From positions 1 to 62,424 of the IMG/VR virus record IMGVR_UViG_3300011918_000036: 62,424 nt of DNA; one strand, 5' to 3'. The translations under genes were made by a program, and so were the position numbers. Below, one piece after another: positions 10,031-50,720 of this stretch. This stretch comes from a virus (taxonomy: Duplodnaviria > Caudoviricetes). The notes under the pieces were generated by a model, which made no database searches, was not told where the DNA came from, and was given only the letters and a program-made list of their open reading frames with translations. Positions within the stretch are counted from its first letter, which is position 1. Each line of letters begins with the position of its first letter.

Positions 10031-10033
10031 ACC

Positions 10034-27188: not shown

Positions 27189-28127
27189 ATGGCTCGTGCT
27201 TATGGCGCGAACGCCAGCCTATTGGCTGCGTTTGAACCCACCTATGGAACTACACCGACTGGAGACTTTGGAAAAATTCCTTTTGTCTCCACCACCTTGG
27301 GCTCAGAACAGGGCTTGATTGCCAACGATCTGATTGGCCTGGGGCGAGACCCGAGTGCGCCCATCCGTGACGTGATCAAGGTCGAGGGTGACATCGTTAT
27401 TCCCATCGATCTTCGCAATATCGGCATGTGGCTCAAAGCCCTGCTGGGAAGTCCTGTGAGCCTTGGAGATACCGCGCACACTCACACTTTTGTATCTGGC
27501 AACTCAGGGCTGCCGAGCCTCTCACTGGAGACGGGACTGCCGGACATTCCGGCGTACTTCCTGGCCTCTGGTGTGATGGCCAACTCGCTGCAAGTGAAAT
27601 TTGCCCGCTCTGGTGCAGCGGACGCCACTTTGGGTTTGATTGCTCAAGGCGAAGTCAAGCGTACTGCCAGCGCAGACGCCACACCCACGACCTTGCCGAT
27701 CACTCGCTTCAACCAGTTCCAGGGTTCGATCAAAAAGAATGGCCAAGCCTTGGGTAACGTGGTCGCAGCGCAGTTGACCTATTCAAACAATCTGGCACGC
27801 ATTGAAACCATTCGCTCCGACGGAAAGATTGAAGGGGCGGACCCCACAGTGGCCAGCTTGACGGGCAACTTGGAGGTTCGCTTCGCAGACACGGAATTGA
27901 TCGATGCTGCGACTAACAACACCCCGCTCGAGTTGACCTTCAGCTATGTCATTGACGCCACCAAGAGCCTGACCTTCATCGCGCATGAGGTCTACCTACC
28001 CAAGCCCAAGCTCTCAATCTCTGGCCCCGGCGGCATCCAGGCCACCTTCGACTGGCAGGCTGCCAAGAACACTGCGGCTGGGCACATGCTGACCGTGCAA
28101 CTCGTCAATGACGTGGTTGCGTACTGA
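27189..28127 (+). CDS. Tail tube (major tail) protein
   Basis: MARAYGANA start, 312 aa beta-rich, upstream of chaperone and tape measure. Confidence 0.85.
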   Translation: MARAYGANASLLAAFEPTYGTTPTGDFGKIPFVSTTLGSEQGLIANDLIGLGRDPSAPIRDVIKVEGDIVIPIDLRNIGMWLKALLGSPVSLGDTAHTHTFVSGNSGLPSLSLETGLPDIPAYFLASGVMANSLQVKFARSGAADATLGLIAQGEVKRTASADATPTTLPITRFNQFQGSIKKNGQALGNVVAAQLTYSNNLARIETIRSDGKIEGADPTVASLTGNLEVRFADTELIDAATNNTPLELTFSYVIDATKSLTFIAHEVYLPKPKLSISGPGGIQATFDWQAAKNTAAGHMLTVQLVNDVVAY

Positions 28128-28493: not shown

Positions 28494-28810
28494 AGGCCCG
28501 CACCGAATGGCACTTTGGTGGTGGATCAACGTACTGCGGGGCATGCGAGGCGACCTGTCCTGAGTGTCCGTACCTGGTGAATTCACCTCGGACTGAAGAG
28601 GGCTGGCAAGCCCTCGCAGTTCTGGATGTCTGTTCCTCCCAAGTGCGGGCAGTTCAAGGCGCAGTGCTGGGCATGGACTTCAATGCGTGGCTTTCCGCCA
28701 GCCAGGCACTGGATGCAGACCCCGCTGCCATGACCCATTTTTTTCCTGCCGTAGAGGCGGGCCTGACGCAAGCATTGAACAAACCATCTCCGGATATTCC
28801 ACATGGCTGA
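28487..28810 (+). CDS. gpT-like -1 frameshift extension of the chaperone
   Basis: The -1 frame after slippery A AAA AAC (28481-28487) is open to 28810 and reads RLKARTEWHFGGGSTYCGACEATCPECPY.. Confidence 0.75.
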   Translation, partial: RLKARTEWHFGGGSTYCGACEATCPECPYLVNSPRTEEGWQALAVLDVCSSQVRAVQGAVLGMDFNAWLSASQALDADPAAMTHFFPAVEAGLTQALNKPSPDIPHG

Positions 28811-31433
28811 ACGCAACCTATCGATTCGACTCGCTGTCATTGATGGCGGAAAAGTCAAAGCCGAACTGGCAGACGTGGGTGAGGCCGGAGAGCGTTCTCT
28901 CAAGAAAATCGAGTCTGCATCGCAACCAGCATCGGCTGGTCTGAACCTGTTGTCCAAAGCGGCCAACGACGCTTTCGTGCGCATGGAGGACGCCACTTCC
29001 CGTCTCGGGATGCTGGGCAGCGTACTCGGTCGCCTTGGTCCCGCAGGATTAATCGTGGGTGCATCTGTTGCTGCGGTCGGTTACGGCATGCATCAACTGG
29101 TTGTTCCGGTCGCTGAAGTTGGCGAAGAGCTCAACAAGCTTTCCCAGAAAACCGCAGTCTCAGTCGAGGCCTTGTCGGCGTTGCTGTATGCCTCAGAGTT
29201 GTCGGATGTGAGCGCTGAGAGCCTGACCAAGGCGCTCAAATTTCTCTCGACTGCCATGTTCGACGCCAAAGTCAAGGGTGGGGAAGGCAGCGCGGCGCTC
29301 AAGGCATTCGGAGTCTCGGCGCTGGATGCACAAGGGCAGATTCGTCCGACGGAGCAGGTGCTGTTGGACCTGGCTGAGAAATTCGCGGCCATGCCTGACA
29401 GTGCAGAAAAGGCAGCCCTGGCTGTCAAGCTGTTCGGCAAGAACGGACTGGACATGATTCCCATGCTCAACCAAGGGCGCGATGGGCTGACTGAAATGAT
29501 GGAAGAGGCCAAGCGCCTCGGCCTGGTCATGTCTGCTGATGCAGCACGCGCTGCAGAGGAGTTCAACGACAACATGAAGCGCTTGCACGCGGTCAACGAA
29601 GGCGTTCAGCGCCAAATCGGATCCGCGTTGCTGCCGATCCTGGCTGACCTGACGGAGCAGATGTTCCTGGCCAAAACCGAGGCCGGAGGATTCACGAGTG
29701 AGTTGCAAGCGATCACGCACAACCGTCAGCAAGTCCTGACGTTCCTTGAGGAGGTCGCAACTGGTCTTGGGTTCATCGCCGAGTCGGCTGTACTTGCCAA
29801 GCGCGTGATCAGCCAACCGTTTGACAGTTTGTCTGTCGTCGCAAAGGACGTCGAGACTTGGATCAAGACAGATCTTCTTCGATCCATGAAGTCGATGGGT
29901 TATGACGAGGGACAAATCAATGCTGAAATAGCCAAACTGCAAGCAGCTCGCGATCGATTTGTGGAGGCCGCTAACGATCGATTGATGAATCTCAATGACA
30001 ACCCTGGGTACGTCAACCGTATCGAAAAGTTCTTTGATGAACAGCGACGCACTGTTCGAGTCATGGGTCAGAGGTTTGTTCTGGATACTGCCGAGCAAGC
30101 CGCGCAGGTCCAGAAAATCTATGACGAATTCATTCCCAAGATGCCTCGTAAGCGGCCAAGTGGATTAGACCTAACAGGGTTTGAGAAGAACAACGAGGGC
30201 TTGCAGTTCTTGAAGCAACTTGAGCAGCGTGCGACGCGAGTAACTCAAGGTGAAGGCGCTGAACTCAGAGCGCGAGCTTTGGAGCTGGAACGCAAGGGAT
30301 ATGCGGGGGTGGTCAAGGAGGCCGAAAAGTACATCGACATGATCGAGCGTATGGAGAAGCAAAAGGAGGCCGACAAAAAGTTCGAGGAGTACGAGAAGGA
30401 GCTACAAAAGGCCCATCAAATCACCGAGAACTACATTGGCAACAACCGCCTCAAGCAGGAAGAGTTGCAGCTCAAGCGTCAGCTTCTGGACGTTGGCGAG
30501 ATCGAGCGGGCTGCCTTGCAGACTCGCTTCGAGATGGAAAAGGCCGCAGTCATGGCATTACGCCAGGCCGAGCAAATCAACGATCCCGGGCTCAAAGCCG
30601 AGGCCATCGCTGCGATCAACGATGCCTTGGCGCGGCAGTTGCCGATCGTCGAGCAGCTCGCTCGGGCCAACGTGGAATACCAGCGCAGCTTTGACTATGG
30701 CCTTCGGAGCTCTCTGCGCACCTACATTGAGGACGCTACCAATGCGGCCAAGCAGGCTGAACGTGCCGTGACCTCCGCCTTCAAAGGCATGGAGGACGCG
30801 ATGGTCCAGTTTGTAACGACCGGCAAGGTGGACTTCAACAGCTTGGCCAACTCGATCATCGCGGACCTGGTACGCATCCAGATCCAAAAAATGATCACCT
30901 TGCCTCTGGCCGGTTGGATGAGTGGACTGAATTTGTTTGGTGGTTCCAGTGGCGGTAACGGAATTGGTGGGGCATTCCCTGCTGGTGCCACTGACCTGAT
31001 GTCAGGCGGAACGATGGTGGCTCACACCGGTGGATTGATTGGCAGTGATGTACTGGCAACTCGATCAGTCGGACTGCATCACTTTGATGGAGCGCAGCGG
31101 TTTCATACCGGTGGAGTGGTGGCGGGCGAAGTCCCCATCATTGCTCAGCCTGGCGAGGCGGTATTCACGCCTGGTCAGCTTCGATCGCTGGGAGGCGCAC
31201 TGGCTAAAAACAATCCGTCACCAGTCAAGGTGGTGGTCAATGTCAACAACCACGCATCAGGCGTGGATGCTCGAGTTCAGACCAGCCAGCAGCCAGACGG
31301 CACCACCCGCCTGGATGTGATGGTTGAGCAGATCGAAGCACGTATGAGCCGATCTATCAACCAAGGTGTGGGTATAGCGCCCACTCTGGAGCGACGTTAT
31401 GGCCTCAATCCCGCAGTAGGAGCCTTGCGATGA
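28803..31433 (+). CDS. Tail tape measure protein
   Basis: 876 aa, Ala/Leu-rich helical; lambda-type C-terminal region with HTGG motifs. Confidence 0.92.
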   Translation: MAERNLSIRLAVIDGGKVKAELADVGEAGERSLKKIESASQPASAGLNLLSKAANDAFVRMEDATSRLGMLGSVLGRLGPAGLIVGASVAAVGYGMHQLVVPVAEVGEELNKLSQKTAVSVEALSALLYASELSDVSAESLTKALKFLSTAMFDAKVKGGEGSAALKAFGVSALDAQGQIRPTEQVLLDLAEKFAAMPDSAEKAALAVKLFGKNGLDMIPMLNQGRDGLTEMMEEAKRLGLVMSADAARAAEEFNDNMKRLHAVNEGVQRQIGSALLPILADLTEQMFLAKTEAGGFTSELQAITHNRQQVLTFLEEVATGLGFIAESAVLAKRVISQPFDSLSVVAKDVETWIKTDLLRSMKSMGYDEGQINAEIAKLQAARDRFVEAANDRLMNLNDNPGYVNRIEKFFDEQRRTVRVMGQRFVLDTAEQAAQVQKIYDEFIPKMPRKRPSGLDLTGFEKNNEGLQFLKQLEQRATRVTQGEGAELRARALELERKGYAGVVKEAEKYIDMIERMEKQKEADKKFEEYEKELQKAHQITENYIGNNRLKQEELQLKRQLLDVGEIERAALQTRFEMEKAAVMALRQAEQINDPGLKAEAIAAINDALARQLPIVEQLARANVEYQRSFDYGLRSSLRTYIEDATNAAKQAERAVTSAFKGMEDAMVQFVTTGKVDFNSLANSIIADLVRIQIQKMITLPLAGWMSGLNLFGGSSGGNGIGGAFPAGATDLMSGGTMVAHTGGLIGSDVLATRSVGLHHFDGAQRFHTGGVVAGEVPIIAQPGEAVFTPGQLRSLGGALAKNNPSPVKVVVNVNNHASGVDARVQTSQQPDGTTRLDVMVEQIEARMSRSINQGVGIAPTLERRYGLNPAVGALR

Positions 31434-31930
31434 GTGATGTGACCTTACCGGCGGGGATTCCCGTATGGCCGGACACCTTGCCGTTGCCTCGTATTGAGGG
31501 ATATGGGTTGGCCCCGCAGTCAAACGCCATTCGAACCGACATCGATTCAGGAGCCGCTCGGATGCGATTGCGATCTACCAGCACGCTCTACCGGGTTCGC
31601 TCAGAGTGGCGCTTCTCGCAAGAGGCGTTCGCAGTCTTTGATGCTTGGTGGATGCATGTGCTCAATCAAGGGGTGCTGTGGTTTGCGATGCCACTCACGG
31701 CTGGGTTGGGCGTTCAGGCGGTTCAAGCGCGATTCATTGCGCCATGGGACACCGAGCTTTTAGCGGGAAACAGGTGGCAGGTGAAAGCGCAACTAGAGGT
31801 GCAAGACTTTCCTCGGCTAAGTCCTGATGAGGTTCAGGTGGCCGCAGTACTTGGACCAGATGCCATCGCGCTGGGGGATCGCCTACATGCCTGGCTCAAT
31901 CAAACCATCGTGGCATCGGACTACTGGTAG
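31430..31930 (+). CDS. Distal tail (gpM/Dit-like) protein
   Basis: WPDTLPLP..IRTDIDSGAARMR; follows the tape measure gene. Confidence 0.7.
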   Translation: MSDVTLPAGIPVWPDTLPLPRIEGYGLAPQSNAIRTDIDSGAARMRLRSTSTLYRVRSEWRFSQEAFAVFDAWWMHVLNQGVLWFAMPLTAGLGVQAVQARFIAPWDTELLAGNRWQVKAQLEVQDFPRLSPDEVQVAAVLGPDAIALGDRLHAWLNQTIVASDYW

Positions 31931-31954
31931 CCATAGACACTAAGGAAATCAATC

Positions 31955-34663
31955 ATGACCCTCAAGACCCGGCTCGATCAAGCTGTGGGAACGATCGAGG
32001 GGGATGCAGGCTTACTCCATCAGATCGTCCACGGGGATGATCAGACAACCGTCACCACGCAAGGTGGTCAGGTCAAAAGTGTGGCCAACGTCATTCATGG
32101 AGTGCAGACCCAGCTTGATGCTTCCCGACAAGATCTGACCAATCAGGTTGCCACTGCAACTCAGCAAGCCACCAGCGCCGCGCAATCGGCCAGCAATGCC
32201 GCAAGCTCTGCGACGACAGCCAGCACCAAAGCAACGGCAGCCACTGATTCCGCGACCAGTGCTGCCAGCTCCGCTACTGCGGCGGCCACGTCGGCGGCGA
32301 CTGCCAGCACCAAGGCCAGTGATGCCAGTAGCAGCAAGACGGCAGCAGCAGCGTCTGCCACCAATGCTGCGACGAGTGCCGCTAATGCGGCTGGTTCTGC
32401 GACTGCTGCTTCGACCTCAGCGAGCACTGCCTCTCAAAAGGCAACCGATGCAGCTGTAAGTGCCAGCTCCGCATCTGCCTCGGCACTCACGGCCACCAAT
32501 AAAGCAGCGGACGCGCAAACTGCGTTGACTGCTGCGCAGGCGCAAGCCACCTTGGCATCCGATTGGGCGCAAAAGACCACGACCACAGTCGATGGTGCCG
32601 GTTATTCGGCTAAGTACTGGGCGGGTCAGGCGGCAAATTCTGCAGCCGTGGTCACCACCAATACGGTGATTCCGGCGGATGTCTTCACTGGTGATGGCGT
32701 CAAGACAGACTTCACTCTCTCACATCCAGTGGCGTACCCCGGCGCGTTGATGGTGACAGTGGCTGGTGTGCCTCAGGCCCCCATCGATGCCTATTCAGTC
32801 CCGACCACAACGACTCTGCGCTTTGTCTCGGCACCGACCAGCGGCGTGGCGATCAGTGTTCGATATTTGGACAAAGAGTCACAGTCTGGCGCAGCAGCTG
32901 CTCAAGAATGGGCCACCAAGACAAGTGGTGTTGTATCGGGGTCGACCGAATATTCGGCGAAATACCATGCGCAGGCTGCTGCCGCGAGTGCCACGTCTGC
33001 TGCACTTTCTGCATCAGCCGCATCGGGGAGCGCGACTGCGGCGGCGGGCTCGGCAACTACCGCCACGACCAAAGCTGCAGATGCTGCAACTTCGGCAACC
33101 AACGCTGCATCCTCGGCAACAACAGCCAGTACCAAAGCAACAGATGCAAGCGCATCGGCCACCAGTGCGGCAACCAGTGCAAGCGGGGCATCTACTTCGG
33201 CCACTACGGCGTCCAGTAAAGCCACGGATGCAGGCAATAGCGCATCAGCGGCAGCAGGCTCAGCAACAAGTGCGGCCAGCAGTGCCACTGTGGCTCAGGA
33301 CTGGGCAACCAAGACGTCGGCACCGGTCAGTGGCAGCGACTACTCTGCGAAATACTACGCACAGTCGATTTCTGCCTCAGCAGCTACCGCCTCTCAAAAG
33401 GCGACAGACGCTGCAACGAGTGCAACAGCGGCGGCATCTTCGGCCACTGCGGCATCAAGCAAGGCTTCTGATGCAGCGACGTCGGCCACCAATGCTGCAT
33501 CGTCGGCGAGTACGGCATCTGCCCAAGCAGTCGCGGCGGCAAGTTCGGCTACCAGCGCGGCATCGTCTGCCATGGCAGCGGCAGGTTCTGCAACAACGGC
33601 CAGTACCAAGGCTTCGGATGCAGGCAATAGTGCCAGCGCTGCAGCCACCTCGGCCAGCAATGCCAGCACTAGCGCTGCCAACGCGTCGAGTTCAGCCAGT
33701 GCTGCGTCTGTATCGGCGGCAACTGCCAGCACAAAAGCGGCAGAGGCTTCGACCAGTGCGTCGGCAGCAGCTAATTCGGCCACTGCTGCTTCTGGCAGTG
33801 CCGCCAGCGCAGCAAGTTCTCTGACTGCGTCTCAGACGCAAGCAACCTTGGCTGCTGACTGGGCGCAAAAGACGACTGGAACGGTTGATGGAAGCGGCTT
33901 CTCGGCCAAGTACTGGGCAGGACAAGCAGCAGGATCTGCAGCAGCGGTGACTGCCAATACGGTCATTCCAGCTGATGTGTTCACGGGCGATGGCGTCAAA
34001 ACTGATTTCACGATCAGCCGACCTGTCGGATACCCGGGCGCACTCATGGTGACGGTGGCTGGGGTGCCACAAGCCCCCCTGGATGCGTACATCACACCGG
34101 CGACCACGACATTGCGTTTCACCTCAGCTCCGGCCAACGGGGTGGTGATCAGCGTGCGATACCTGGACAAGGAGGCGCAGTCTGGCGCAGCCGCAGCCGA
34201 AGAGTGGGCAAACAAGACGTCAGGCCCTGTTTCTGGATCGACCGAGTATTCAGCCAAGTACTACGCGCAGTCCATTGCTGCCAATGCTGCCATCGCAAGT
34301 CAGCAAGCAACCAGCGCGGCGAACTCGGCAACGGCTTCGGCGGGTAGTGCCACTGCATCAGCGAACTCTGCGACGGCTTCAGCCGCCTCGGCTACACAGG
34401 CCCAGAGCTACATGAGCCAGGCGCAGGGATATGCCGCTGCGGCGGGCGGATCCAACGTCGCTCCGCAGGTCTTTACAGGCAACGGTTCGGCTACGGATTT
34501 CAGTCTGAGCACAGCAGCATCCAGCGTCCATAAATTGATCGTGACGGTCAATTACGTGGTCCAGGACTCGCTCGATGCCTACGTCCTGGTCAATTCCGGG
34601 GCGACTTTGCGATTCACATCGGCACCAACCGCCAGCGCGCGGATTGTGGTGCGTTACATCTAA
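31955..34663 (+). CDS. Side tail fibre with Ala/Ser/Thr repeats and duplicated beta modules
   Basis: Stf-like A/S/T tracts, five W-A-x-K-T..SAKY motifs, three FTGDG/FTGNG..LRF.SAP modules. Confidence 0.75.
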   Translation: MTLKTRLDQAVGTIEGDAGLLHQIVHGDDQTTVTTQGGQVKSVANVIHGVQTQLDASRQDLTNQVATATQQATSAAQSASNAASSATTASTKATAATDSATSAASSATAAATSAATASTKASDASSSKTAAAASATNAATSAANAAGSATAASTSASTASQKATDAAVSASSASASALTATNKAADAQTALTAAQAQATLASDWAQKTTTTVDGAGYSAKYWAGQAANSAAVVTTNTVIPADVFTGDGVKTDFTLSHPVAYPGALMVTVAGVPQAPIDAYSVPTTTTLRFVSAPTSGVAISVRYLDKESQSGAAAAQEWATKTSGVVSGSTEYSAKYHAQAAAASATSAALSASAASGSATAAAGSATTATTKAADAATSATNAASSATTASTKATDASASATSAATSASGASTSATTASSKATDAGNSASAAAGSATSAASSATVAQDWATKTSAPVSGSDYSAKYYAQSISASAATASQKATDAATSATAAASSATAASSKASDAATSATNAASSASTASAQAVAAASSATSAASSAMAAAGSATTASTKASDAGNSASAAATSASNASTSAANASSSASAASVSAATASTKAAEASTSASAAANSATAASGSAASAASSLTASQTQATLAADWAQKTTGTVDGSGFSAKYWAGQAAGSAAAVTANTVIPADVFTGDGVKTDFTISRPVGYPGALMVTVAGVPQAPLDAYITPATTTLRFTSAPANGVVISVRYLDKEAQSGAAAAEEWANKTSGPVSGSTEYSAKYYAQSIAANAAIASQQATSAANSATASAGSATASANSATASAASATQAQSYMSQAQGYAAAAGGSNVAPQVFTGNGSATDFSLSTAASSVHKLIVTVNYVVQDSLDAYVLVNSGATLRFTSAPTASARIVVRYI

Positions 34664-34675
34664 CTAGGAGAAATC

Positions 34676-35230
34676 ATGGCGATTACGCGCATCCCCAAAG
34701 CGGGGTTGGATGATGCTCTGCAAACTGAGCTGAACGGCAAGTTGGACAAGGCTGGTGGAACCATGACAGGTTCCATCACGATGACCAACGGAGCCCTTTT
34801 CAAGAGCAGTGTGACAGGCGACGATGCCCGCAACACGGGCTACAAGATGGGCGATGGTCAGGACATCGGTGAGATGAACCGTTCGAGCCAGTATTACGAC
34901 GACCGTGCAAGCAATTGCAACGGCTATCTGCCTAACGGCAACTGTGCCGGTAATGGCAACTGGAACCCGCCAAATGGCAACTGGTGGACTTGGGGCGTCA
35001 GTGGTGTTCCTACCGGCAATTGCGCCAACTGGGGAAGCTATGACGGAGCAGGCGGTACGAGCCAGGTTTTCAATGCGGTGTCTGTAGGGTTCAACTACGA
35101 CGGGTACTACGAGGCGGCCAATGAAATTGGCGGATCGGAATACCACCGCTGGTATCGGAATTGCAATTGCGGTGCATTCAATTGCCGAACCAACTGCAAT
35201 TGCAACTGCGCTTGCTGTGGCTGCTGCTGA
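34676..35230 (+). CDS. Short fibre-like protein with Asn-Cys-rich C-terminus; candidate modification substrate
   Basis: N-terminal KLDKAGGTMTG fibre repeat; 13 Cys, 9 as NC; ends NCNCGAFNCRTNCNCNCACCGCC. Confidence 0.75.
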   Translation: MAITRIPKAGLDDALQTELNGKLDKAGGTMTGSITMTNGALFKSSVTGDDARNTGYKMGDGQDIGEMNRSSQYYDDRASNCNGYLPNGNCAGNGNWNPPNGNWWTWGVSGVPTGNCANWGSYDGAGGTSQVFNAVSVGFNYDGYYEAANEIGGSEYHRWYRNCNCGAFNCRTNCNCNCACCGCC

Positions 35231-35239
35231 GGAGGTGAG

Positions 35240-36073
35240 ATGAAGGTCTATATCACCCGCCCCCCCGCCTATGCCAGTTCACCTGATCACGTCGTGCGTG
35301 TTTTTGTGGATTCGGCCAGGAAGCATGTCGGAGTGGAGATGTGCATTGTTTTCTCGCCCAACCCCAGCGAGCCATTGCCCGATGACGAATCCGTCCTGCA
35401 AAGCGGCGAGAAGTTTTACAAGGTCATCGCAGTCAGTGAGTTTGACTATGAGTTGCTCAAAAAAAGCACCGGTTGGGCAGATCGTCAAGCTTGGCATCTG
35501 ACTTTCCGATGGGACGTTCGATCCTTTACCGATCCGATCCCACTCTATACCTACTCGATGGCAACCAAGATGTCTGCACCCGAACTGTCGCGAACGACTT
35601 ATCAGAACAACCTATCCGTAGGGTTCGTGGTTCCGTTTGCAGACTCGTTGTTCGAGGAGTGCGCAGTGACCGTGAACATCAACCCCGATGTGAACAAAGG
35701 CGATTGCGTGGTTCTTGGGGTAGATGCGTCGGACATTGAGCGCACAGACTATTCAGCCAGCGCCCAGGTGCGCGAGTTGATCTTGCTGCCTGGTGTTCAA
35801 GTGTCTGCCCCTGCGAGCTGCACAGCTAACGGACAAGTCGATGTGCATTTGCAGGTTGTAGATGCCAACGACCAGCCCCTTGAGCGCGATGCAGAGATTT
35901 TTCTGGAGACAGTCAACGGTTACCTGCCCAAGACCCGAATCAAAACAGTCAATGGACAGGCCATCGTTCCTTTCCTGGCGTTGGGACTGAATGACGGAGA
36001 CTCGGCTCGCGTCAAGGCTGGGTTCAAGTATTTCAGCGGAGCCTCTGATGCGTCCATCCAGATCCGTGACTAA
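35240..36073 (+). CDS. Hypothetical protein with probable C-terminal Ig-like domain
   Basis: GGAGGT RBS; VHLQVVDANDQPL..TVNGQAIV..VKAG pattern of alternating beta strands. Confidence 0.65.
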   Translation: MKVYITRPPAYASSPDHVVRVFVDSARKHVGVEMCIVFSPNPSEPLPDDESVLQSGEKFYKVIAVSEFDYELLKKSTGWADRQAWHLTFRWDVRSFTDPIPLYTYSMATKMSAPELSRTTYQNNLSVGFVVPFADSLFEECAVTVNINPDVNKGDCVVLGVDASDIERTDYSASAQVRELILLPGVQVSAPASCTANGQVDVHLQVVDANDQPLERDAEIFLETVNGYLPKTRIKTVNGQAIVPFLALGLNDGDSARVKAGFKYFSGASDASIQIRD

Positions 36074-36674
36074 GGAGCTGTTTGGCGCGCGGGTGTACGT
36101 TGGAATGCACTCCTTTGATCCTGAGTTGATGACGACGATGTGTATTCAGGCGCTGGCCTTGCATGAACACACCAATCCTCACGGTATGCCTTGGTCGCGA
36201 AGCACGCGAGAAAGTCTGCATCTGATGCCTGCATTTGATCCAGTCATCCGGTTGATCGAGAGTGTTGTAGCGCAGGAATACGGCTGCAGTGTGAGCGAAA
36301 TGACAGGACGCGAGGTAGTGGTCAAGCGGGGTCAGTGCTTGCCATTGCACTGCGAGGATACGGATTTGTCTGCGGTGTTCATCCTAAGCACCCAGGCACA
36401 ACCGGATCCCTCGCGCAGCGACTACTCCGGAGCCTTTGTGCTGGTCAATCCGAGTGGAACATTCGGTTTCAAGAACTTGCCGTGGGAAGGCTTGCGATCG
36501 GAATTGATCTATCCGGCATCAGGAATGCTCCTGATCTTTCCCAGCTACTTGGCGCATCACACCCACCCCTATAACGCAGAGGAGCCCGCCGTTGAGTTGC
36601 ACTTTGAACTCAGCGTGGCCGATAACCATGCAAATCAACGTTTACGACAACCTAGCTTCCCCCGATCTCTTTGA
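36048..36674 (+). CDS. Putative Fe(II)/2OG oxygenase 1
   Basis: LPLHCEDTDLSAVF and LLIFPSYLAHHTHP, DSBH-type His pattern. Confidence 0.75.
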   Translation: MRPSRSVTKELFGARVYVGMHSFDPELMTTMCIQALALHEHTNPHGMPWSRSTRESLHLMPAFDPVIRLIESVVAQEYGCSVSEMTGREVVVKRGQCLPLHCEDTDLSAVFILSTQAQPDPSRSDYSGAFVLVNPSGTFGFKNLPWEGLRSELIYPASGMLLIFPSYLAHHTHPYNAEEPAVELHFELSVADNHANQRLRQPSFPRSL

Positions 36675-37215
36675 AGCTGCCCGCGTGTGGCTTCTAGCTC
36701 AAAGCCCGATCTTTGGCTGGCGCGCTCATGCTCAGGCCCCTGGTACGTTTTGGCATCGAAACTTTGTGTTGCCTGGAACGCATCAACACCACTATGACGA
36801 TGGTGCATGGAATTCGGATTTGAGCTATGAGTCCTTTTTGAAAAATTCAGGCCCCTTTGCCGATGTAGCGGAAATAGTTCGACGCGAGCATTTTGGAGAT
36901 GTCGCCTTGACTCGTGTTTGGGCGAACTACCAGACATTTGGCGATGAATCCGCATTTCATCGTGACTTCCCGGCGCAGTACTCAAAATCGGCCCGCACGG
37001 CGATTTGGTATCCGGTGATGCGTTGGGATCGCGACTGGGGAGGCGACTTTGTCACCCTTGATGAAGAAGGCGAGGTGAATGCTTGTACCTTGATCAAGCC
37101 CAATCGTCTGGTGGTTTTCAACGGAACACAAACACACGCAGCTCGACCGATATCCCGGTATTGCAACGAGCTGCGCATTGCTGTCTCTTTTGGATGCGAG
37201 GTTACCCATGATTGA
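36628..37215 (+). CDS. Fe(II)/2OG oxygenase 2 (prolyl-hydroxylase-like)
   Basis: SAFHRD (HxD), WDRDWGG, PNRLVVFNG..HAARP, distal R (LRIAVSF). Confidence 0.85.
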   Translation: MQINVYDNLASPDLFEAARVWLLAQSPIFGWRAHAQAPGTFWHRNFVLPGTHQHHYDDGAWNSDLSYESFLKNSGPFADVAEIVRREHFGDVALTRVWANYQTFGDESAFHRDFPAQYSKSARTAIWYPVMRWDRDWGGDFVTLDEEGEVNACTLIKPNRLVVFNGTQTHAARPISRYCNELRIAVSFGCEVTHD

Positions 37216-37873
37216 ACATTTATGGAGTACGCCTGTCCTGCATGAAGCCTCGCCATTCGCAGCGGACCAGATCAATGAGCTGAAGACGTTCACGACGGAG
37301 CGCTTTAAGAATCACAAGGCCCATCCTCCGCGACATGCAATGCCTGATGTGCCAGTGAAATTGCGCACCCAATTGAACCTCTTTTTGCCAGAGCATGAAA
37401 TGCAGGCCCCACCTGTCTGGTTTGAGTTCAAAAAGTGGGTCGATAAGACCTACCGTACTTATTTGCAAGAGGCTCACGGGGTCAGGAATGCAAGTGAACT
37501 CGATGTGCTGGCGCGCTGCATTCCTGTCTGCTACCAAAAGGGGATGCGGGCTCAGCCGCACTATCACCACACAGGTGACCACGTTCTTTGCCTGTACCTC
37601 GACTGTGGCCGAGAACGAAGTCCTCCACAGGACCGTGATTGGACGGTCGGAGATGGAGAGCTGCTTTTACAGGACCCCCGCCCGATGGCGGGGTTTCCGT
37701 TTTGGGAAAAGGTTCGATACATCGAAACAACTCCTGGGTTGTTTGTTTTGCATCCCTCACGGATATGGCACGAGACCAATCCCTTCAACTCCCCCAGTGG
37801 GGAGCGCGTCCTGTTGGTCGTCACCTTCCGCGTGGCCTCCCACAACTACACAGAGCTTTACACCCGGCTATGA
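37208..37873 (+). CDS. Putative Fe(II)/2OG oxygenase 3 (TIGR02466-like)
   Basis: HLWSTPV start, PHYH (HxH), GELLLQDPRP, HPSRIWHETNP, ERVLLVVTF. Confidence 0.8.
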   Translation: MIEHLWSTPVLHEASPFAADQINELKTFTTERFKNHKAHPPRHAMPDVPVKLRTQLNLFLPEHEMQAPPVWFEFKKWVDKTYRTYLQEAHGVRNASELDVLARCIPVCYQKGMRAQPHYHHTGDHVLCLYLDCGRERSPPQDRDWTVGDGELLLQDPRPMAGFPFWEKVRYIETTPGLFVLHPSRIWHETNPFNSPSGERVLLVVTFRVASHNYTELYTRL

Positions 37874-37885
37874 GCTGGGCAGGAG

Positions 37886-38089
37886 ATGACCTTGATTGAG
37901 AAAACCATAGAGCTCGTTGATGACGAGCATGTCTTGTTTACCGTAACAGTCTTGGATGGTGAGCGCATCCGCTCCCGCCGTGAATATCACTTGGCCAAGT
38001 TTGCACACCAGAGTGCGCAGGAGGTGTGCCGTCAGGCATGCCCTGAGGCTTTTGCCGATGAACCGGCAATGCAAAGTGCAGGTGCGTGA
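37886..38089 (+). CDS. Small hypothetical protein coupled to the radical SAM gene
   Basis: 67 aa; stop overlaps the rSAM start (TGATG). Confidence 0.6.
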   Translation: MTLIEKTIELVDDEHVLFTVTVLDGERIRSRREYHLAKFAHQSAQEVCRQACPEAFADEPAMQSAGA

Positions 38090-39450
38090 TGGCTAGATTT
38101 ACTTTGCACGCGCGCAATCGCGCCAATGAGCCAGTCCAGCTGATTTACGACAACCAAACCAGTGAGCTTCTGGCCGAGGACCTTACTCCCTGGCCACTGG
38201 CCTACATTGAAAAATCATGGACAGTCGGTCACATTGAAGCGGTTAGCCTTACCCATCCTGGTCGAAAGACCAGCCCCAAGGTATTGAAAATTCAGCTTGG
38301 TCTGTCGTGCAACTACTCGTGCGACTATTGCAGCCAACGGTTTGTTCCTCATGCGCAAGAGACCACGCAAGCAGACGTACCTCAATTTTTGAGGCTGCTT
38401 GAGGATAGTCTCGACCAAGCACCCGAGCGAATTGAGTTTTGGGGTGGCGAACCGTTGGTTTATATCAAGACCCTGCGCCCTTTGGCTGAGGCGCTCAGGC
38501 AGCGGTATCCGTCAGCATCATTTGGCATCGTCACCAATGGCTCTTTGCTGAATCCGGAGGTCAATGAATGGCTGGATGCATTGGGCTTTGGTGTGGGCGT
38601 TAGTCACGACGGTCCAGGTCAACCTGCTCGTGGCCCAGACCCTCTGGCAGACGAATCCAGCCGCGCCGGAATTCTGGATCTTTACAAGCGGCTCTCTCCT
38701 CAGGGGCGAATCTCGTTCAATGCCATGGTCCATCGCACGAACACCAGTCGGGAAGAGATTGCCAAGTACTTCTTGCAGTTGACTGGCGATCCGACGATTT
38801 CGATCGGCGAGGGAGCCTTCGTTGATCCCTACGATGCGGGGGGTCTGGCAAATTCGCTTCAATCGAATGAGGAGGCCTTCGAATTTCGCAGGCAATCGCT
38901 GGATGAAATTCGTCGTGGGCGGATTGTTCATCTCGATATTGCTCGTTCTCGTATGCGCGAGTGGGCTCGAAGCATCCTGGAGAGACGTCCGGCCAGCGTG
39001 TTGGGTCAGAAGTGCGGGATGGACAGTCCTGACCAGATCGCCGTCGATCTCATGGGCAGTGTGCTTACTTGTCAAAACGTGAGTTCGGTGTCTATTGCGC
39101 CTAACGGTCAGTCGCATCACATCGGGCATATTTCAAAGTTGTCGGATGTGGCACTCGACACCTCGACGCATTGGTCTGAACGATCAGAGTGTCTTGGCTG
39201 CCCTGTGCTTCAAGCTTGCAAGGGCGCATGCATGTTCTTGGAAGGACCGTTGTGGACAGCGGCCTGCGACAACGCGTATTCGGATCATGTGCCATTTTTT
39301 GTGGCTGCCATCGAACATCTGACGGGTTGCGCTGTGCAACGCATCGAAGGGGTTCTGCCGCAAGCCAGGTCTGACGTCTTTGGATTCGATGCCAAAGCCA
39401 ATCAATCAGCCTCCAGAAAAGTCATTCCCATCAAGGTGTCAAATGCCTGA
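38089..39450 (+). CDS. Radical SAM enzyme with SPASM domain
   Basis: CNYSCDYC (CxxxCxxC), FWGGEPL, VTNGSLL; C-terminal KCG..TCQ..CLGCPVLQACKGAC..AC. Confidence 0.92.
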   Translation: MARFTLHARNRANEPVQLIYDNQTSELLAEDLTPWPLAYIEKSWTVGHIEAVSLTHPGRKTSPKVLKIQLGLSCNYSCDYCSQRFVPHAQETTQADVPQFLRLLEDSLDQAPERIEFWGGEPLVYIKTLRPLAEALRQRYPSASFGIVTNGSLLNPEVNEWLDALGFGVGVSHDGPGQPARGPDPLADESSRAGILDLYKRLSPQGRISFNAMVHRTNTSREEIAKYFLQLTGDPTISIGEGAFVDPYDAGGLANSLQSNEEAFEFRRQSLDEIRRGRIVHLDIARSRMREWARSILERRPASVLGQKCGMDSPDQIAVDLMGSVLTCQNVSSVSIAPNGQSHHIGHISKLSDVALDTSTHWSERSECLGCPVLQACKGACMFLEGPLWTAACDNAYSDHVPFFVAAIEHLTGCAVQRIEGVLPQARSDVFGFDAKANQSASRKVIPIKVSNA

Positions 39451-39985
39451 TCAAGCTCTTTCAGCAGCATTGCGTGAGGCATATGCCAGTGCGCCCAACG
39501 ACGTGGTTATTTTGCATACCTTGGAGATCCGGCACCCGGACTTTAGAGACGATGCAGGTAATACGACCGCGATCCGCGTGGTTCGTGATCAGCAAGACTT
39601 GCTTGCAAGGCTTGAGGCGTCAGCGCCAATCAATGCAGGCCAGCAGGTTCAGTTTGTAGCCATGGGATTTGAGCTGGATCTGCCGCCGGTAGATATTGCG
39701 CCTGTTCCGGAAATTGCGATCACCCTGGACAACGTCACCCGTGAGATCGTGAAGCACTTGGATGAGGCGTCAGTTTCGGAGTCACCCATTGAAGTGACCT
39801 ACCGTCCGTACCTTTCCAACGATTTGAGTGGCCCACAGATGGATCCGCCCATCACGTTGGTGATCACCGAGGTGGAGGCGGACGTGCAGCGGGTCACGGC
39901 CAAGGCACGGATGGCTGACATTGGCAACAAAACCTTCCCGTCACGCCTGTACACCGCAACTGAGTTCCCTGGATTAGCACGATGA
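39443..39985 (+). CDS. DUF1833 tail-tip protein
   Basis: LREAYASAP..ILHTLEIRHP, ITLDNV, YRPYLS, FPGL. Confidence 0.85.
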   Translation: MPDQALSAALREAYASAPNDVVILHTLEIRHPDFRDDAGNTTAIRVVRDQQDLLARLEASAPINAGQQVQFVAMGFELDLPPVDIAPVPEIAITLDNVTREIVKHLDEASVSESPIEVTYRPYLSNDLSGPQMDPPITLVITEVEADVQRVTAKARMADIGNKTFPSRLYTATEFPGLAR

Positions 39986-40404
39986 CGAAAGAAGACTCGC
40001 CGAGTTGGGCGATCCAATACATCGGTCGTCCGTGGATTGCAGGTGAGAGAGGCCCCGAGTCATTTGACTGCTGGGGCCTTTTTCTTTGGGTCCAGAAGAC
40101 GCACTTCAGTCGTGAATTGCCTGTGATCCCGGTGGATGCACTGAATCTGCGGACGGTCCTGCACACGTTCAAAACTCACCCTGAGAGGCAACGTTGGGCT
40201 GTGGTCGATGTGCCACAGCAGGGTGATGCGGTCTTGATGCGTCAGTCTCGACACCCTGTTCATGTGGGCGTATGGGTCGAGGGAGACGGTGGCGGCGTTT
40301 TGCACTGTGCCCAGCAGGCTGGAGTGGTGTTTCAGCAACTGAATTCTCTGGCCAGTCACGGCTGGCAGGTGGAGGGGTATTACCGATGGAAGGAATCGCC
40401 ATGA
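39982..40404 (+). CDS. NlpC/P60 tail-associated protein (gpK-like)
   Basis: FDCWGL catalytic Cys, HVGV. Confidence 0.9.
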   Translation: MTKEDSPSWAIQYIGRPWIAGERGPESFDCWGLFLWVQKTHFSRELPVIPVDALNLRTVLHTFKTHPERQRWAVVDVPQQGDAVLMRQSRHPVHVGVWVEGDGGGVLHCAQQAGVVFQQLNSLASHGWQVEGYYRWKESP

Positions 40405-42695
40405 CAAGCACTTGCATGTCAGGCCTACCCAGTCCTGGACTGGTCATTTGGATGCGAAATCCGTTCGAGCCCAGTGATCGGCAGGTGAGCCATGTGTTTG
40501 GATCGCCCACGATCGCACAGTGGATGAGTCGTGATGGCGTTGAACTCGACCAGCCCACCTTGATCCTGAAAAACGGGCAGCCAGTACTGATGGCGCATAG
40601 GGCGGTGACGCCGATAGATGCAGGAGACGTCGTAGCTTTGGTCACACTGCCGCAAGGCGGTGGAGGTGGCGGCAAGAATCCGCTGAGAACCGTGCTCATG
40701 ATCGCCGTGCTGGTCGTCGCAAATGCGTATGGCGGCGCTCTGGCTGCGTCAATGGGGTATTCAGGCACGCTAGCGACGGCGGTGGCGTCAACTGCGATTG
40801 CAGTGACGGGCTCTGTACTTGTCAATGCCCTGGTGCCGTTGCCAAATCAGGCCTTGCCCTCGGCATCAGCCAACACCACATCCCCCAGCCCGACATACTC
40901 CTTGCAAGCGCGGGGTAACTATGGACGCTTGGCGCAACCCGTGCCTGTGATCTATGGCCGTCATCTGGTGTACCCAGATCTGGCCACCATGCCCTATACG
41001 GAGTACGAGAACAATGAAGAATATCTCCATCAACTGCATGTCATCGGTGTAGGCCAGTTCCAGTTTGAGGAGCTGTCCATTGATGACAGCCCGATCAGCT
41101 CGTTCGCAGAGGTGCAAGCGCAGGTGATTGAGCCAGGCGGCCAGAACACATTGTTCAATCCTGATGTGGTTACGGCCCCGGAGGTCTCGGGACAGGAGTT
41201 GATTGCTGTTAGCGATACCGGAGCCATCGTTGGCCCCTTTGCCCTAAATCCGGTGGGTACACAGATCAATCAGGTCGGTGTCGATGTGGTGATGTTGCGC
41301 GGTCTCTACTATGCCAATGACAGTGGTGCATTGGAAAGCCGATCGGTGCAGTGGCGGGTTGAGGTGCGAAGCATCAACGATGATGGGGATGCCATCTCGG
41401 GTTGGCTTCATTTGGCAGACGAGACCTACTCAGCTGCAACCAATACCGCGCAGCGCCTGTCTTTCAAGTATTCGGTGGCACCTGGGCGTTATGAGATCCG
41501 CCTGCAGCGCCTTGATGCACGGGATACCAGCAATCGGGCTGGTCATGAGTTGCGTTGGGGGCAAGCCAAGGGTTATTTGGCTGGATCCCAACTGCCCACT
41601 GATCTGACTTACTTGGCGCTCAGGATGCGCGCTACCGACAACTTGTCACAGCGTTCCTCACGGTTGGTCAACTGCCTGGTGACGCGCAAGCTCTCAAGTT
41701 GGAGTTCAAGCTCTGGGTGGTCTGCGCTGCAACCCACCCGGTCGATTGCGTGGGCCTTCGCGGATGCTGTTAAGTCCAGCTACGGCGCAGGTCTGCCTGA
41801 CCGGCAATTAGACTTGTCAGCCTTGGCGCGGTTGGATGCGGCGTGGTCTGTTCGAGGGGATACCTTCAATGCAGTGTTTGATCAGAACCAGACGGTGTGG
41901 GACGCCTTGGGGCAGATTGCCCGGACTGGGCGTGCCGTGCCGTTTTTGCAAGGCGGGATTGTTCGCATCGTTCGCGATGAACCCAAGACCATCCCGGTGG
42001 CGCTCTTTTCTGCACGAAATATCGTGCGCAACAGCTGGAAGATTCAGTACCTGATGGCAGGCGATGCGACAGCGGATGCTGTCACGATCGAATACGTCAA
42101 CCCCAAGAGCTGGAAGCCTGACGAGTTCACAGTGGCGTTGCCTGGATCCCAGGCTGTCAAGCCTGCTCGCGTGAGATTGTTTGGCTGTACCGATAGGGCT
42201 CAGGGCGTTCGAGAGGGTAAATACATCGTGGCGGCCAATCGATATCGCCGACGAATCGTGACCTTCCGCACGGAGCTGGAAGGTTTGATTCCAACCTATG
42301 GAGATTTGATTGCGCTCAGTCACGACATTCCGCGATGGGGTTTGAGTGGAGAGGTCTTGAGCTGGGACAGTCAAACGAGGACTGTGCGGTGTTCTGAGTC
42401 GCTGAGTTGGCAGTTAGGAGCCGTTCACTACCTGGTTCTGCGAAAGCCAGATGGCTCGGTCTCCGATGCCATTGAGGTCACGCAGGGGGCAACTGCTGCT
42501 CATGCCATCCTGAAAGCTCAGCCCGGGTTTGAGCCACAGATCAGTGCTGACCGTGAGCGAACGCATTTTGCTTTTGGTGTCGGGCAGTCCTGGTCTCAGC
42601 TGGCGCGTGTCATGAGCGTCAAGCCCAGGGCTGAGCAGGTCGAGCTGACTTGCGTGGCTGAGAACGCGTTGGTGCATACCGCCGATCAATCCTGA
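40401..42695 (+). CDS. Central tail tip / host specificity protein (gpI/J-like), short C-terminus
   Basis: PQGGGGGGKNPLR, PVPVIYGRH..YPD, TRSIAWA. Confidence 0.88.
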   Translation: MTSTCMSGLPSPGLVIWMRNPFEPSDRQVSHVFGSPTIAQWMSRDGVELDQPTLILKNGQPVLMAHRAVTPIDAGDVVALVTLPQGGGGGGKNPLRTVLMIAVLVVANAYGGALAASMGYSGTLATAVASTAIAVTGSVLVNALVPLPNQALPSASANTTSPSPTYSLQARGNYGRLAQPVPVIYGRHLVYPDLATMPYTEYENNEEYLHQLHVIGVGQFQFEELSIDDSPISSFAEVQAQVIEPGGQNTLFNPDVVTAPEVSGQELIAVSDTGAIVGPFALNPVGTQINQVGVDVVMLRGLYYANDSGALESRSVQWRVEVRSINDDGDAISGWLHLADETYSAATNTAQRLSFKYSVAPGRYEIRLQRLDARDTSNRAGHELRWGQAKGYLAGSQLPTDLTYLALRMRATDNLSQRSSRLVNCLVTRKLSSWSSSSGWSALQPTRSIAWAFADAVKSSYGAGLPDRQLDLSALARLDAAWSVRGDTFNAVFDQNQTVWDALGQIARTGRAVPFLQGGIVRIVRDEPKTIPVALFSARNIVRNSWKIQYLMAGDATADAVTIEYVNPKSWKPDEFTVALPGSQAVKPARVRLFGCTDRAQGVREGKYIVAANRYRRRIVTFRTELEGLIPTYGDLIALSHDIPRWGLSGEVLSWDSQTRTVRCSESLSWQLGAVHYLVLRKPDGSVSDAIEVTQGATAAHAILKAQPGFEPQISADRERTHFAFGVGQSWSQLARVMSVKPRAEQVELTCVAENALVHTADQS

Positions 42696-42761: not shown

Positions 42762-43145
42762 ATGCCAGAACCGACAAGTAGTGGAGTCGCAGGAGCGGCA
42801 GTGGCTTACAAGGCCTTCGGCGGAACGGCGGCAGCAGTTGCCAGCGGAGCCACCTTGGCCGCCGTGGTGGTCATGCTGATGACTCCACCGCGAAACAAAC
42901 GTGAATGGGCTGTCGGCTTGATCAGTACGGTGGTGTCCAGCATTGGCGGTGGTGCTTTCACTGTAGAGCATTTCGGTCTGCATCACTGGGCTTTCTCATT
43001 CATGGGGCTATGTGCTCTGGGTGGGTTGATCTTTGCGTGCGGCTTGCCGGGGTGGGCGATGGTTCGTTGGACCTTTGCATTCATTGACAAGCGTCGAGAC
43101 GATTCGATCGAAGAGGTGGCCAAAGACGTGAAGGAGCTGCTATGA
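42762..43145 (+). CDS. Holin
   Basis: Three hydrophobic segments, charged C-terminus, upstream of the endolysin. Confidence 0.75.
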   Translation: MPEPTSSGVAGAAVAYKAFGGTAAAVASGATLAAVVVMLMTPPRNKREWAVGLISTVVSSIGGGAFTVEHFGLHHWAFSFMGLCALGGLIFACGLPGWAMVRWTFAFIDKRRDDSIEEVAKDVKELL

Positions 43146-43606
43146 AACCGATTGAATTCATCGCATTGATCGGCTCCTCTGCGCAGGCAACGGCCAAGCG
43201 TACGGGCGTGTTCGCCAGTATCACGATCGCGCAGGCAGCGTTGGAGTCCGGTTGGGGTGAGTCTGGCCTGGCCAAGGTGGGGAAGAACCTCTTTGGCATC
43301 AAGGCCGATAGCCGCTGGAGGGGGGAGACCTTGATTCTTCAGACCAAGGAATTCATCCGTGGCCAGTGGGTTGTGGTGCCTGCCAAGTGGCGCAAGTACG
43401 CCAGCTGGCAAGAGAGCATTGATGACCACGCAGCCTTCCTCAAGCAAAACCCGCGCTATCAACCATGCTTCCAATGTTTGACGGCTCAGGCATTTGCACA
43501 AGCGCTGGCCAAGGCTGGGTATGCCACGGATCCAGGCTACGCCAACAAGGTGATCGGACTCATGAATCAGCACAAGCTGCAAGCACTGGATGGAGGTGCT
43601 CCATGA
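43142..43606 (+). CDS. Endolysin, GH73 glucosaminidase/FlgJ-like
   Basis: AQAALESGWG, NLFGIKA, GYATDPGY. Confidence 0.92.
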   Translation: MKPIEFIALIGSSAQATAKRTGVFASITIAQAALESGWGESGLAKVGKNLFGIKADSRWRGETLILQTKEFIRGQWVVVPAKWRKYASWQESIDDHAAFLKQNPRYQPCFQCLTAQAFAQALAKAGYATDPGYANKVIGLMNQHKLQALDGGAP

Positions 43607-48640: not shown

Positions 48641-48650
48641 CGTAGCCTCC

Positions 48651-50687: not shown

Positions 50688-50720
50688 TCCTTCAGCCGCT
50701 GTACTACCGATATTGGGGGG

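Follow-up and report, generated by a model that had tools for sequence, protein, structure and literature searches.

Enzymes that join a radical S-adenosylmethionine (SAM) core to a SPASM domain are known to crosslink small secreted peptides and very few proteins, namely QhpC and, in 2026, CrpA. In the current analysis we have considered a provirus record of 62,424 bases (IMG/VR record IMGVR_UViG_3300011918_000036), the whole of which is referred to here as the window, and in it the open reading frame (ORF) 34676-35230 on the forward strand, which encodes a predicted tail-fibre tip protein ending in a ladder of Asn-Cys units. A radical SAM/SPASM enzyme is encoded in the same late operon, and between the two genes lie those for a 277-aa all-beta protein, three 2-oxoglutarate (2OG) oxygenases and a 67-aa protein. 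The anatomy and the conservation of the tip are evident from the alignments, and a near-obligate gene linkage, found in both directions, joins the ladder to the enzyme. The enzyme is likely to act on the ladder, as this linkage suggests.

Among the peptide maturases, NxxcB links Cys to Asn through a beta-thioether and also accepts Ala, Gln or Asp in the place of Asn (PMC9389541), in agreement with the initial annotation of the window, which had stated that NxxcB joins Cys sulfur to the Asn beta carbon. These four acceptors are the residues that alternate with Cys in the ladder of the window. NxxcA differs from the tip protein in being a short secreted peptide with NxxC spacing (PMC9389541), and the NxxcB model is not among the best 25 of the 45 NCBIfam families matched by the window's enzyme, the 25 to which the NCBIfam results given here refer.

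SPASM enzymes are also known to crosslink whole proteins, CrpC acting on CrpA and QhpD on QhpC, and ranthionine crosslinks have been found by mass spectrometry on the CrpA protein of Methanococcus voltae (PMC13692751). CrpC and CrpA resemble the pair in the window in that a SPASM enzyme is encoded beside a Cys-repeat protein and not a short peptide, and the Cys residues of CrpA, like those of the tip protein, lie in a C-terminal part that follows an N-terminal part free of Cys (PMC13692751). CrpA differs in being an archaeal cellular protein of unknown function, with 17-residue repeats carrying C-X-X-Q/D and not NC at a period of two (PMC13692751), and the window's enzyme lies outside the CrpC family TIGR04463, which it matches over the radical SAM core alone with 32.9 bits against a cut-off of 525. 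Neither 'phage' nor 'viral' appears anywhere in the paper describing CrpC and CrpA (PMC13692751). QhpD is likewise a radical SAM/SPASM enzyme and installs Cys thioethers in a protein subunit (PMC13692751). Its substrate QhpC differs in being an enzyme subunit, not a structural virion protein, and has Cys-Asp/Glu pairs but no ladder; the window's enzyme falls outside the QhpD family TIGR03906 as well (8.8e-13, 47.7 bits against 453, radical SAM core alone, residues 67-178).

PapB with PapA (freyrasin) and CteB with SCIFF also combine a radical SAM/SPASM enzyme with a Cys-rich C-terminal core, and a Cys-rich C-terminal core encoded near a maturase is the feature that the window shares with sacti- and ranthipeptide systems. 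The substrates of PapB and CteB are leader-bearing peptides of a few dozen residues, whereas the fibre of the window has 184 aa and those of its relatives have up to 686 aa. Unlike the clusters for peptides made on the ribosome and modified after translation (RiPPs), the window has no short leader precursor, and general Pfam, PHROG and NCBIfam scans of the cassette proteins gave no protease and no exporter or transporter family. The initial annotation had described the tip as a leader/core-like substrate, a description that fails on this point and also because the part preceding the tract is a folded fibre module. In the titles and abstracts searched, with subscription journals and supplementary files outside the search, no phage fibre is described as the target of a radical SAM enzyme, and the Hint domain of the phiCbK paper belongs to a terminase intein. 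Going by its sequences, the case of the window would belong to the known kind of SPASM crosslinking at the level of whole proteins.

The shaft, the parts of the tip gene and the enzyme gene are the following.

31955-34663 (+): tail-fibre shaft of 902 aa, Ala/Ser-rich, directly 5' of the tip gene in the same operon; phrog_13980 (1.8e-12), phrog_3279 (6e-12) and a weak Phage_T7_tail match
34666-34670 (+): AGGAG, a Shine-Dalgarno-like sequence 5 nt 5' of the ATG, read from the sequence
34676-34810 (+): putative docking and trimerising module, tip residues 1-45 (MAITRIPKAGLDD..., KLDKAGGTMTG), swapped among homologues
34811-35158 (+): conserved domain rich in Asn, Gly, Trp and Tyr, tip residues 46-161, with Cys 81, 90 and 116
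35159-35230 (+): NC ladder NCNCGAFNCRTNCNCNC, then ACCGCC, tip residues 162-184 and the stop; proposed substrate of the radical SAM enzyme
38086-39450 (+): radical SAM/SPASM enzyme of 454 aa (PF04055, PF13353, TIGR04085), 2.9 kb 3' of the tip gene

The tip ORF encodes 184 aa from an ATG at 34676 to a stop at 35228-35230. Its 13 Cys are found at residues 81, 90, 116, 163, 165, 170, 174, 176, 178, 180, 181, 183 and 184, hence 13/13 within the final 104 residues and 10/13 within the final 24; 9/13 directly follow Asn, and GNC and GNW occur twice each. This composition, to which the initial annotation had drawn attention, is confirmed, and among shuffles of the protein's own residues 0/200,000 reach 9 NC dipeptides and 0/200,000 reach 10 Cys in the final 24 positions. 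The KLDKAGGTMTG sequence had been reported as a repeat typical of tail fibres. A motif of this type is indeed typical of fibre proteins (gp028 of Achromobacter phage JWF has three), but in the tip protein it is present in a single copy, at residues 22-32. Tandem Repeats Finder shows no array in 34600-35300, and no slippage of a DNA repeat is claimed. The forward frame of 34676-35230 is by homology the coding frame, because 134 of the 147 candidate proteins from a word-indexed search with the tip protein match at E <= 0.001 and the tract is conserved; the opposing minus-strand ORF 34664-35146 has no comparable support from homologues or conservation.

The tip family is, judged by sequence searches, real but small, since a profile of 107 sequences, run with HMMER against all 1.84 billion cluster representatives, matched just 66 clusters, and 29 of these reach E <= 1e-30. 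Models of Pfam, PHROG and NCBIfam assign 0 families to the tip protein, tblastn with it against 50,697 phage records gave no match, and Foldseek of the tip monomer against the PDB gave nothing usable (best E 5.3). Matches of tip residues 45-184 in the ESM Atlas score 0.77-0.81, which is under the meaningful level, and those that carry names are all fibre families.

Alignments of the tip proteins show three zones, namely an exchangeable N-terminus made up of interchangeable fibre modules, a conserved domain and an NC tract with a variable distal end. A conserved NC tract next to a variable middle had been expected; the tract is conserved, but the middle of ~115 residues is itself a conserved domain, and the parts that vary are instead the adaptor at the N-terminus and, distally, the (xC)n end. 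W103, W104, W106 and G83 are invariant in the 107 sequences. The near-invariant C-terminal tract reads R-x-[YV]-x-N-C-N-C-G-x-F-N-C-[RY]-T-N-C-N-C-N-C, and its Cys columns are occupied in 106 (C163), 107 (C165), 103 (C170), 106 (C174), 107 (C176) and 106 (C178) of these sequences. The tract is followed by (xC)1-11, where x is mostly A, N, D or Q, and then by an optional short cap. Relatives on the phage backbone of the window open with a similar ITxIPxxGLxD motif.

The tip had been described as fibre-anchored, and the context of the gene agrees with this. Within the tail operon the tip gene has the fibre shaft gene on its 5' side and the DUF1833, NlpC and J-like genes on its 3' side, and the ~130-aa Asn/Cys/Trp-rich domain forms the C-terminus of full-length T7-type or collagen fibres elsewhere, as in P0130, which ends in the tip domain and carries Phage_T7_tail (1.4e-20), Collagen (5.1e-24) and PTR, and in L079 and L084, whose collagen fibres have 615-620 aa. 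The trimer prediction proposed earlier as a check gave a homotrimer model scoring 0.81 against 0.00 for the best control, with agreement between runs on at least 72% of contacts and a partner predicted local distance difference test (pLDDT) value of at least 66; the mark used in this calibration is reached by 20/30 solved pairs and 1/23 single chains. The predicted interface involves mostly residues 3-71, and the pass may partly reflect resemblance to solved fibre trimers. The AlphaFold 2 (AF2) model of the monomer has a pLDDT of 67. From sequence and model together, the ORF is assigned as a trimer-type tail-fibre tip protein, which probably docks onto the 902-aa shaft and would be displayed on the virion.

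The enzyme matches PF04055 with 32.6 bits against a cut-off of 29.5 and the SPASM model TIGR04085 with 30.2 bits against 27 (4.5e-07, residues 310-384). In 7 diverse homologues (37-79% identity) the CX3CX2C motif (C75, C79, C82) is invariant, and so are all seven SPASM Cys expected of an enzyme with two auxiliary clusters (C310, C329, C369, C372, C378, C382, C394). PapB is the sole near-full-length model among the NCBIfam matches (1.2e-14, residues 67-383, 54.3 bits against a cut-off of 340). The geopeptide maturase model matches at 2e-16, the viperin-family model at 2.9e-13, ranked amid the peptide maturases, CcpM at 6.7e-10 (38.4 bits against 500) and the SCIFF maturase model with 26.4 bits against 425, and CteB (5wgg) is a weak match in the PDB (6.1e-04). 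The enzyme is a member of phrog_1802 (1.3e-59) and, by sequence comparison, represents a phage family of its own. Because of this separate family and of scores far below the curated cut-offs, its reaction is not readable from family membership.

Gene linkage ties the ladder to the enzyme from either side. A forward census covered 92 loci with a tip homologue, 41 from species genomes and 51 from IMG/VR, which were not de-replicated and include some contigs present in both collections. A homologue of the enzyme is encoded on the same strand in 65 of the 66 loci having at least 5 kb 3' of the tip gene and in 76 of 78 at a threshold of 3 kb, at a distance of 1.0-5.4 kb (median 2.2 kb, n = 80). For the reverse census an alignment of seven enzyme homologues was used, giving at least 589 IMG/VR stretches, of which the best 80 loci were examined; a ladder was counted if it stood at the end of an ORF or directly before a Hint domain. 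A same-strand 5' ORF with a (Cx)>=3C ladder is present in 55 of the 56 loci that hold at least 5 kb upstream of the enzyme gene; one miss, L120, has a shorter ladder ending NCNCACK. The tie between tract and enzyme proposed in the initial annotation is upheld by both censuses, the reverse one giving the strongest result of the analysis. The NWW motif of the Trp-rich domain is absent in 50 of the 60 loci with a ladder ORF and present in 10, and the ladder ORFs devoid of it have a different distal domain, one example ending ...QYNFNCNCNCNCDCYC. Since most ladder ORFs of the reverse census lack the Trp-rich domain, it is the ladder that is, on these sequences, the constant partner of the enzyme. 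In a PHROG scan of 8 ladder ORFs, 6 match tail-fibre families, 1 matches weakly (best 4.6e-04) and 1 matches nothing. Two of the reverse-census loci, L119 and L134, are on the backbone of the window, with 74-77% identity in the tape measure and 72-73% in the J-like protein.

Besides the tips of the window's type there is a further family, apparently the larger of the two (L118-L174), with a conserved ...WTANYGWLHDYFF... domain, no NWW and the same NC ladder, and with genes for 277-aa-like, 2OG and radical SAM proteins following it. Examples are L125:4794-5717, L134:4949-5548 and L123:3863-5530, and some tips of this family share the phage backbone of the window. In L077 radical SAM genes flank the tip gene on both sides (4506-5780 and 9101-10423), and L151 has two tandem ladder-tailed genes (4501-4983 and 4993-6138), the latter also having a Hint domain. 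A 2.1-Mb chromosome contig holds an intact ladder-tailed gene for a fibre of 402 aa (L031:9317-10525); there the homologue of the 277-aa protein is truncated and neither a radical SAM gene nor detectable tail genes are present within 10 kb of the ladder-tailed gene, which may be a decaying prophage remnant.

The enzyme has matches in 8 phage records, and its identity to the genes of Ralstonia phage RSP15 and of Achromobacter phages JWF and 2-1 is 50-51%. JWF gp028 (L043:4718-6169) is a fibre with gp36-like motifs and the end QNCNCDCNCNCSC, the final Cys of which is residue 1 of a Hint domain. The JWF enzyme, 49.8% identical to that of the window, is encoded two genes 3' of gp028, and the pair of ladder and enzyme is present there although no homologue of the 277-aa protein is detectable. 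In RSP15, where the side-fibre ORF ends NTNCQCGN, the next gene encodes a 277-aa-protein homologue (28% identity over 152 residues, E 2e-12), and after it comes the gene for an enzyme 51% identical to the window's. JWF gp028-gp030 and RSP15 ORF048-045 therefore resemble the window in having a fibre that ends in an NC ladder together with a closely similar enzyme, and RSP15 resembles it in the 277-aa homologue as well; both fibres are unlike that of the window in lacking the Trp-rich domain, and JWF is unlike it in the Hint domain directly after the ladder. The two records annotate these genes as hypothetical, Hint or radical SAM proteins and nothing more, the JWF enzyme being labelled an anaerobic sulfatase-maturating enzyme in one record. 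The literature searched held no functional study of the ladder-fibre genes of JWF or RSP15, and the TCUP2199 paper cites JWF for genome organisation alone. Ralstonia jumbo phage RP12 was considered as a further case of the same system and rejected, as its three-enzyme cluster has 26% identity but the two upstream ORFs have no Cys ladder; its three radical SAM genes beside virion genes (L096, ORF074-ORF080) seem to form a different system.

The tip protein of the window has no Hint domain, the chain stopping after the ladder. The ladder runs straight into Hint (…C|FPAGT…) in the tip ORFs of L033-L041, L068, L076 and L095, in P0106, P0136, P0138, P0142 and P0158 and in JWF gp028, and Hom_end_hint matches at 3e-12 in JWF gp028 and 3.1e-10 in P0136. 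That the final Cys of the ladder is the first residue of Hint implies, on sequence grounds, either a self-cleavage that would leave the ladder C-terminal or a thioester available for ligation.

The ladder also marks a mosaic border. In the sister phages L009 and L053, DNA homology to the window continues up to 35170 and resumes at 39435, with no blastn match of at least 80 bases between. Their tip proteins are 78% identical to that of the window and carry an extra 14-residue NC block, and their enzymes are just 40% identical to the window's. All loci with such an extended tract (20/20) have an enzyme 38.0-40.7% identical to the window's, a pairing that linked inheritance alone could explain. 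In one freshwater metatranscriptome run, contigs match one side alone of 35191, 35232 and 39435, the same borders as in L009 and L053, and variants with a different cassette therefore coexist in nature. Near-identical contigs of 151-983 nt from four freshwater metatranscriptome runs of four studies cover parts of 31900-40500, including 34047-34803 and 35156-35928; since contigs of RNA libraries can have DNA as their origin, these are not counted as proof of transcription, and uncovered bins carry no meaning.

The genes between those of the tip and the enzyme are the following.

35240-36073 (+): 277-aa all-beta protein with a C-terminal Big_1/invasin-like immunoglobulin (Ig) domain; AF2 pLDDT 83.4, predicted template modelling (pTM) score 0.79
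35991-36674 (+): 2OG-Fe(II) oxygenase A, start codon uncertain; PF13759 5.6e-05 (below cut-off), phrog_81 4e-07, HxE...H by eye
36592-37215 (+): 2OG-Fe(II) oxygenase B; PF13640 1.6e-06, 29.4 bits against 27, and a weak match to the FlmC family NF052475, 47.7 against 240
37178-37873 (+): 2OG-Fe(II) oxygenase C; PF13759 3.7e-06, 27.7 bits against 27, phrog_81 3.7e-11
37886-38089 (+): 67-aa protein with a stop overlapping the start of the enzyme gene; no Pfam, PHROG or NCBIfam family

Residues 184-277 of the 277-aa protein match Ig-like domains (Z 12.8, root-mean-square deviation 1.8, 91 residues aligned), among them intimin and invasin at Z 11.0-11.1, and a lead from the ESM Atlas agrees with this assignment. 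Homologues are encoded 3' of the tip gene in most loci, so that the protein is common and not universal; it is read as an accessory, possibly an adhesin, chaperone or scaffold. The HxD/E...H residues are visible by eye in all three oxygenases, and a sequence search for solved relatives of these proteins found none. The oxygenases are by their distribution accessories, because their number per locus ranges from 0 to 3 alongside the same tract type. Homologues of the 67-aa protein occur in 20 ORFs immediately 5' of the enzyme gene across the loci. This protein possibly serves in substrate recognition; with no Pfam or NCBIfam match, a role as a RiPP recognition element remains a guess. L026, L027, L032, L069, L070, L074, L075 and L092 have, between the 277-aa homologue and the main enzyme, one more radical SAM paralogue with 23-28% identity to the enzyme of the window, and in all of these loci except L092 it occupies the place of the oxygenases.

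The cassette is embedded in the following tail and lysis genes.

27189-28127 (+): tube protein
28803-31433 (+): tape measure
31430-31930 (+): phrog_384 virion protein
39380-39985 (+): DUF1833 minor tail protein, the first backbone gene 3' of the cassette (PF08875, 2.7e-43)
3' of the DUF1833 gene (+): NlpC and J-like protein genes
43142-43606 (+): glucosaminidase-family endolysin, 3' of the J-like gene and marking the lysis module (PF01832, 1.9e-39)

The 902-aa shaft shows by eye three copies of a ~70-aa module (…VFTG.G..TDF.LS…LRF.SAP…VRY[IL]) separated by long Ala/Ser-rich runs, the third copy forming the end of the protein just 5' of the tip gene. Just beyond the lysis genes a restriction/defence-like cluster of four genes is found on the minus strand (45551-54709), encoding a ResIII helicase with a C-terminal endonuclease domain (1029 aa), an N6_N4 DNA methylase (678 aa), a DUF4391 protein (233 aa) and an SNF2-type helicase (1096 aa).

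On balance we favour the explanation that the ORF encodes a fibre tip whose ladder serves the radical SAM/SPASM enzyme as substrate, with a thioether as the most likely product. The tip would consist of an exchangeable N-terminal docking module on the 902-aa shaft, the Asn/Trp-rich domain and a ladder with Cys at every second residue, NCNCGxFNCRTNCNCNC and then (xC)n, on which the enzyme would act. Instead of the core and leader of a peptide substrate, the enzyme would here meet a disordered tail at the C-terminus of a folded fibre module that forms trimers. As in the sacti- and ranthipeptide synthases, a Cys thiol would bind an auxiliary Fe-S cluster, a hydrogen atom would be abstracted from a neighbouring residue, Asn being by analogy the obvious candidate acceptor, and a C-S bond would follow. 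The thioether itself is put forward tentatively, as the most likely product because the Cys residues are invariant, because SPASM enzymes with Cys-rich substrates make thioethers and because the acceptors of NxxcB are the residues that alternate with Cys here. Disulfides do not form in the reducing cytoplasm, where fibres assemble. Thioether staples would lock the tip in that compartment before release and would later withstand oxic water and oxidation. The 2OG oxygenases would probably add optional hydroxylations, the Ig-like 277-aa and the 67-aa proteins would probably aid in assembly, recognition or adhesion, and in relatives the Hint cap would cleave itself so that the ladder becomes the C-terminus.

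Several observations weigh against this explanation. The enzyme scores far under the cut-off of every curated maturase family in NCBIfam, and of the solved structures the closest to it is that of TigE (6.9e-09), a cyclopropyl synthase, which forms C-C bonds and not thioethers. A Cys ladder with a period of two is unlike the known ranthipeptide motifs, be it NxxC or the C-X-X-Q/D of CrpA, and the ladder is unstructured in the monomer model, at a pLDDT of just ~30. Two loci, L031 and L024, carry the tip gene without the enzyme gene, and L146 carries the enzyme gene with no ladder gene within 4.4 kb. The linkage, moreover, points to a partnership and does not indicate which residue would be modified.

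The main alternative, though an unlikely one, is that the ladder is a metal-binding needle, in which alternate Cys residues of the trimer face its threefold axis and bind metal ions or Fe-S clusters in a row, the enzyme acting elsewhere or assisting. Iron bound by His-x-His motifs is a precedent from the tips of some phage fibres and from spikes (T4 gp37, the P2 and phi92 spikes). The strict period of two for Cys, the tolerant alternate positions and the variable number of repeats would fit a one-faced strand lining an axis, the homotrimer model passes its controls, and CrpA too may bind metals in the suggestion of its authors (PMC13692751). Such a needle would have no need of a dedicated radical SAM enzyme, yet the two genes are linked in 65/66 and 55/56 loci; thiolate-metal and Fe-S sites would be fragile in oxic fresh water, the habitat given in the records of these phages, and general Pfam and NCBIfam scans show no metallochaperone family in the cassette. 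A metallothionein-like tip had been offered as an alternative in the initial annotation; metallothionein-like metal binders are small proteins with Cys-x-Cys clusters and few aromatic residues, and the tip protein has CxC runs together with 6 Trp, 10 Tyr, 4 Phe and a folded domain. Metal loading and stapling are in any case compatible and not mutually exclusive.

Less probable than the needle is a modification of the ladder by other chemistry, such as the conversion of Cys into formylglycine or a dehydro residue, epimerisation of the alternate residues, or C-C or C-O links to Asn, Trp or Tyr. The C-C bonds formed by TigE, the wide margins by which all curated thioether families are missed and the sulfatase-maturating label on the JWF enzyme would all be accommodated. 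The maturation motif of sulfatases is C-x-P/A-x-R, and this is absent from the tract of the window. PapB alone aligns over the full enzyme among the NCBIfam matches. SPASM enzymes span many reaction types (PMC9389541), but here the Cys is the invariant element, and the characterised Cys-rich substrates of SPASM enzymes are thioether ones (PMC9389541, PMC13692751).

A disulfide or structural knot, with the enzymes directed at a small molecule, the shaft fibre or the 277-aa protein, is improbable. In its favour, Cys80 and Cys89 are jointly lost in some homologues, as would be expected of a disulfide pair, and the tie between enzyme and tract is one of gene linkage. Against it, ladder and enzyme stay paired across loci in which the other members (the Trp-rich domain, the 277-aa protein and the oxygenases) come or go, JWF keeps this pair without a detectable 277-aa homologue, and disulfides are precluded at the site of fibre assembly.

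The stapled ladder, with a thioether as the most likely linkage, remains the reading that we prefer, and it may be extended in a speculative and rather doubtful way to fibre tips as a widespread natural class of proteins made on the ribosome and cross-linked by enzymes. The ladder would then be stapled, possibly across the three chains, into a covalent, perhaps metal-loaded needle in contact with the receptor, and the length of (xC)n, the optional hydroxylases and the optional self-cutting Hint would tune its stability and the host range.

An enzyme of a kind known from peptides and very few proteins is here tied in both directions to the end of the protein by which a phage finds its host, and the tie extends over viral contigs in the hundreds. 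The Trp-rich tip domain, the three-oxygenase cassette, the reverse census, with the ladder alone as constant partner of the enzyme, and the mosaic borders at the ladder are new in the current analysis. The sequences suggest a phage that probably carries out a chemical modification of the fibre with which it binds its host. If this is true, enzymes of the RiPP type can mature virions, and many radical SAM and 2OG oxygenase genes of phage tail operons, so far unexplained, would be accounted for. Cultivable test systems would be at hand, with a possible compact pair of enzyme and tag for the stapling of proteins. The prediction of host range from fibre sequence would also be affected, as the functional tip may differ from the encoded polypeptide, and natural-product chemistry would be in use in the building of a virus particle.

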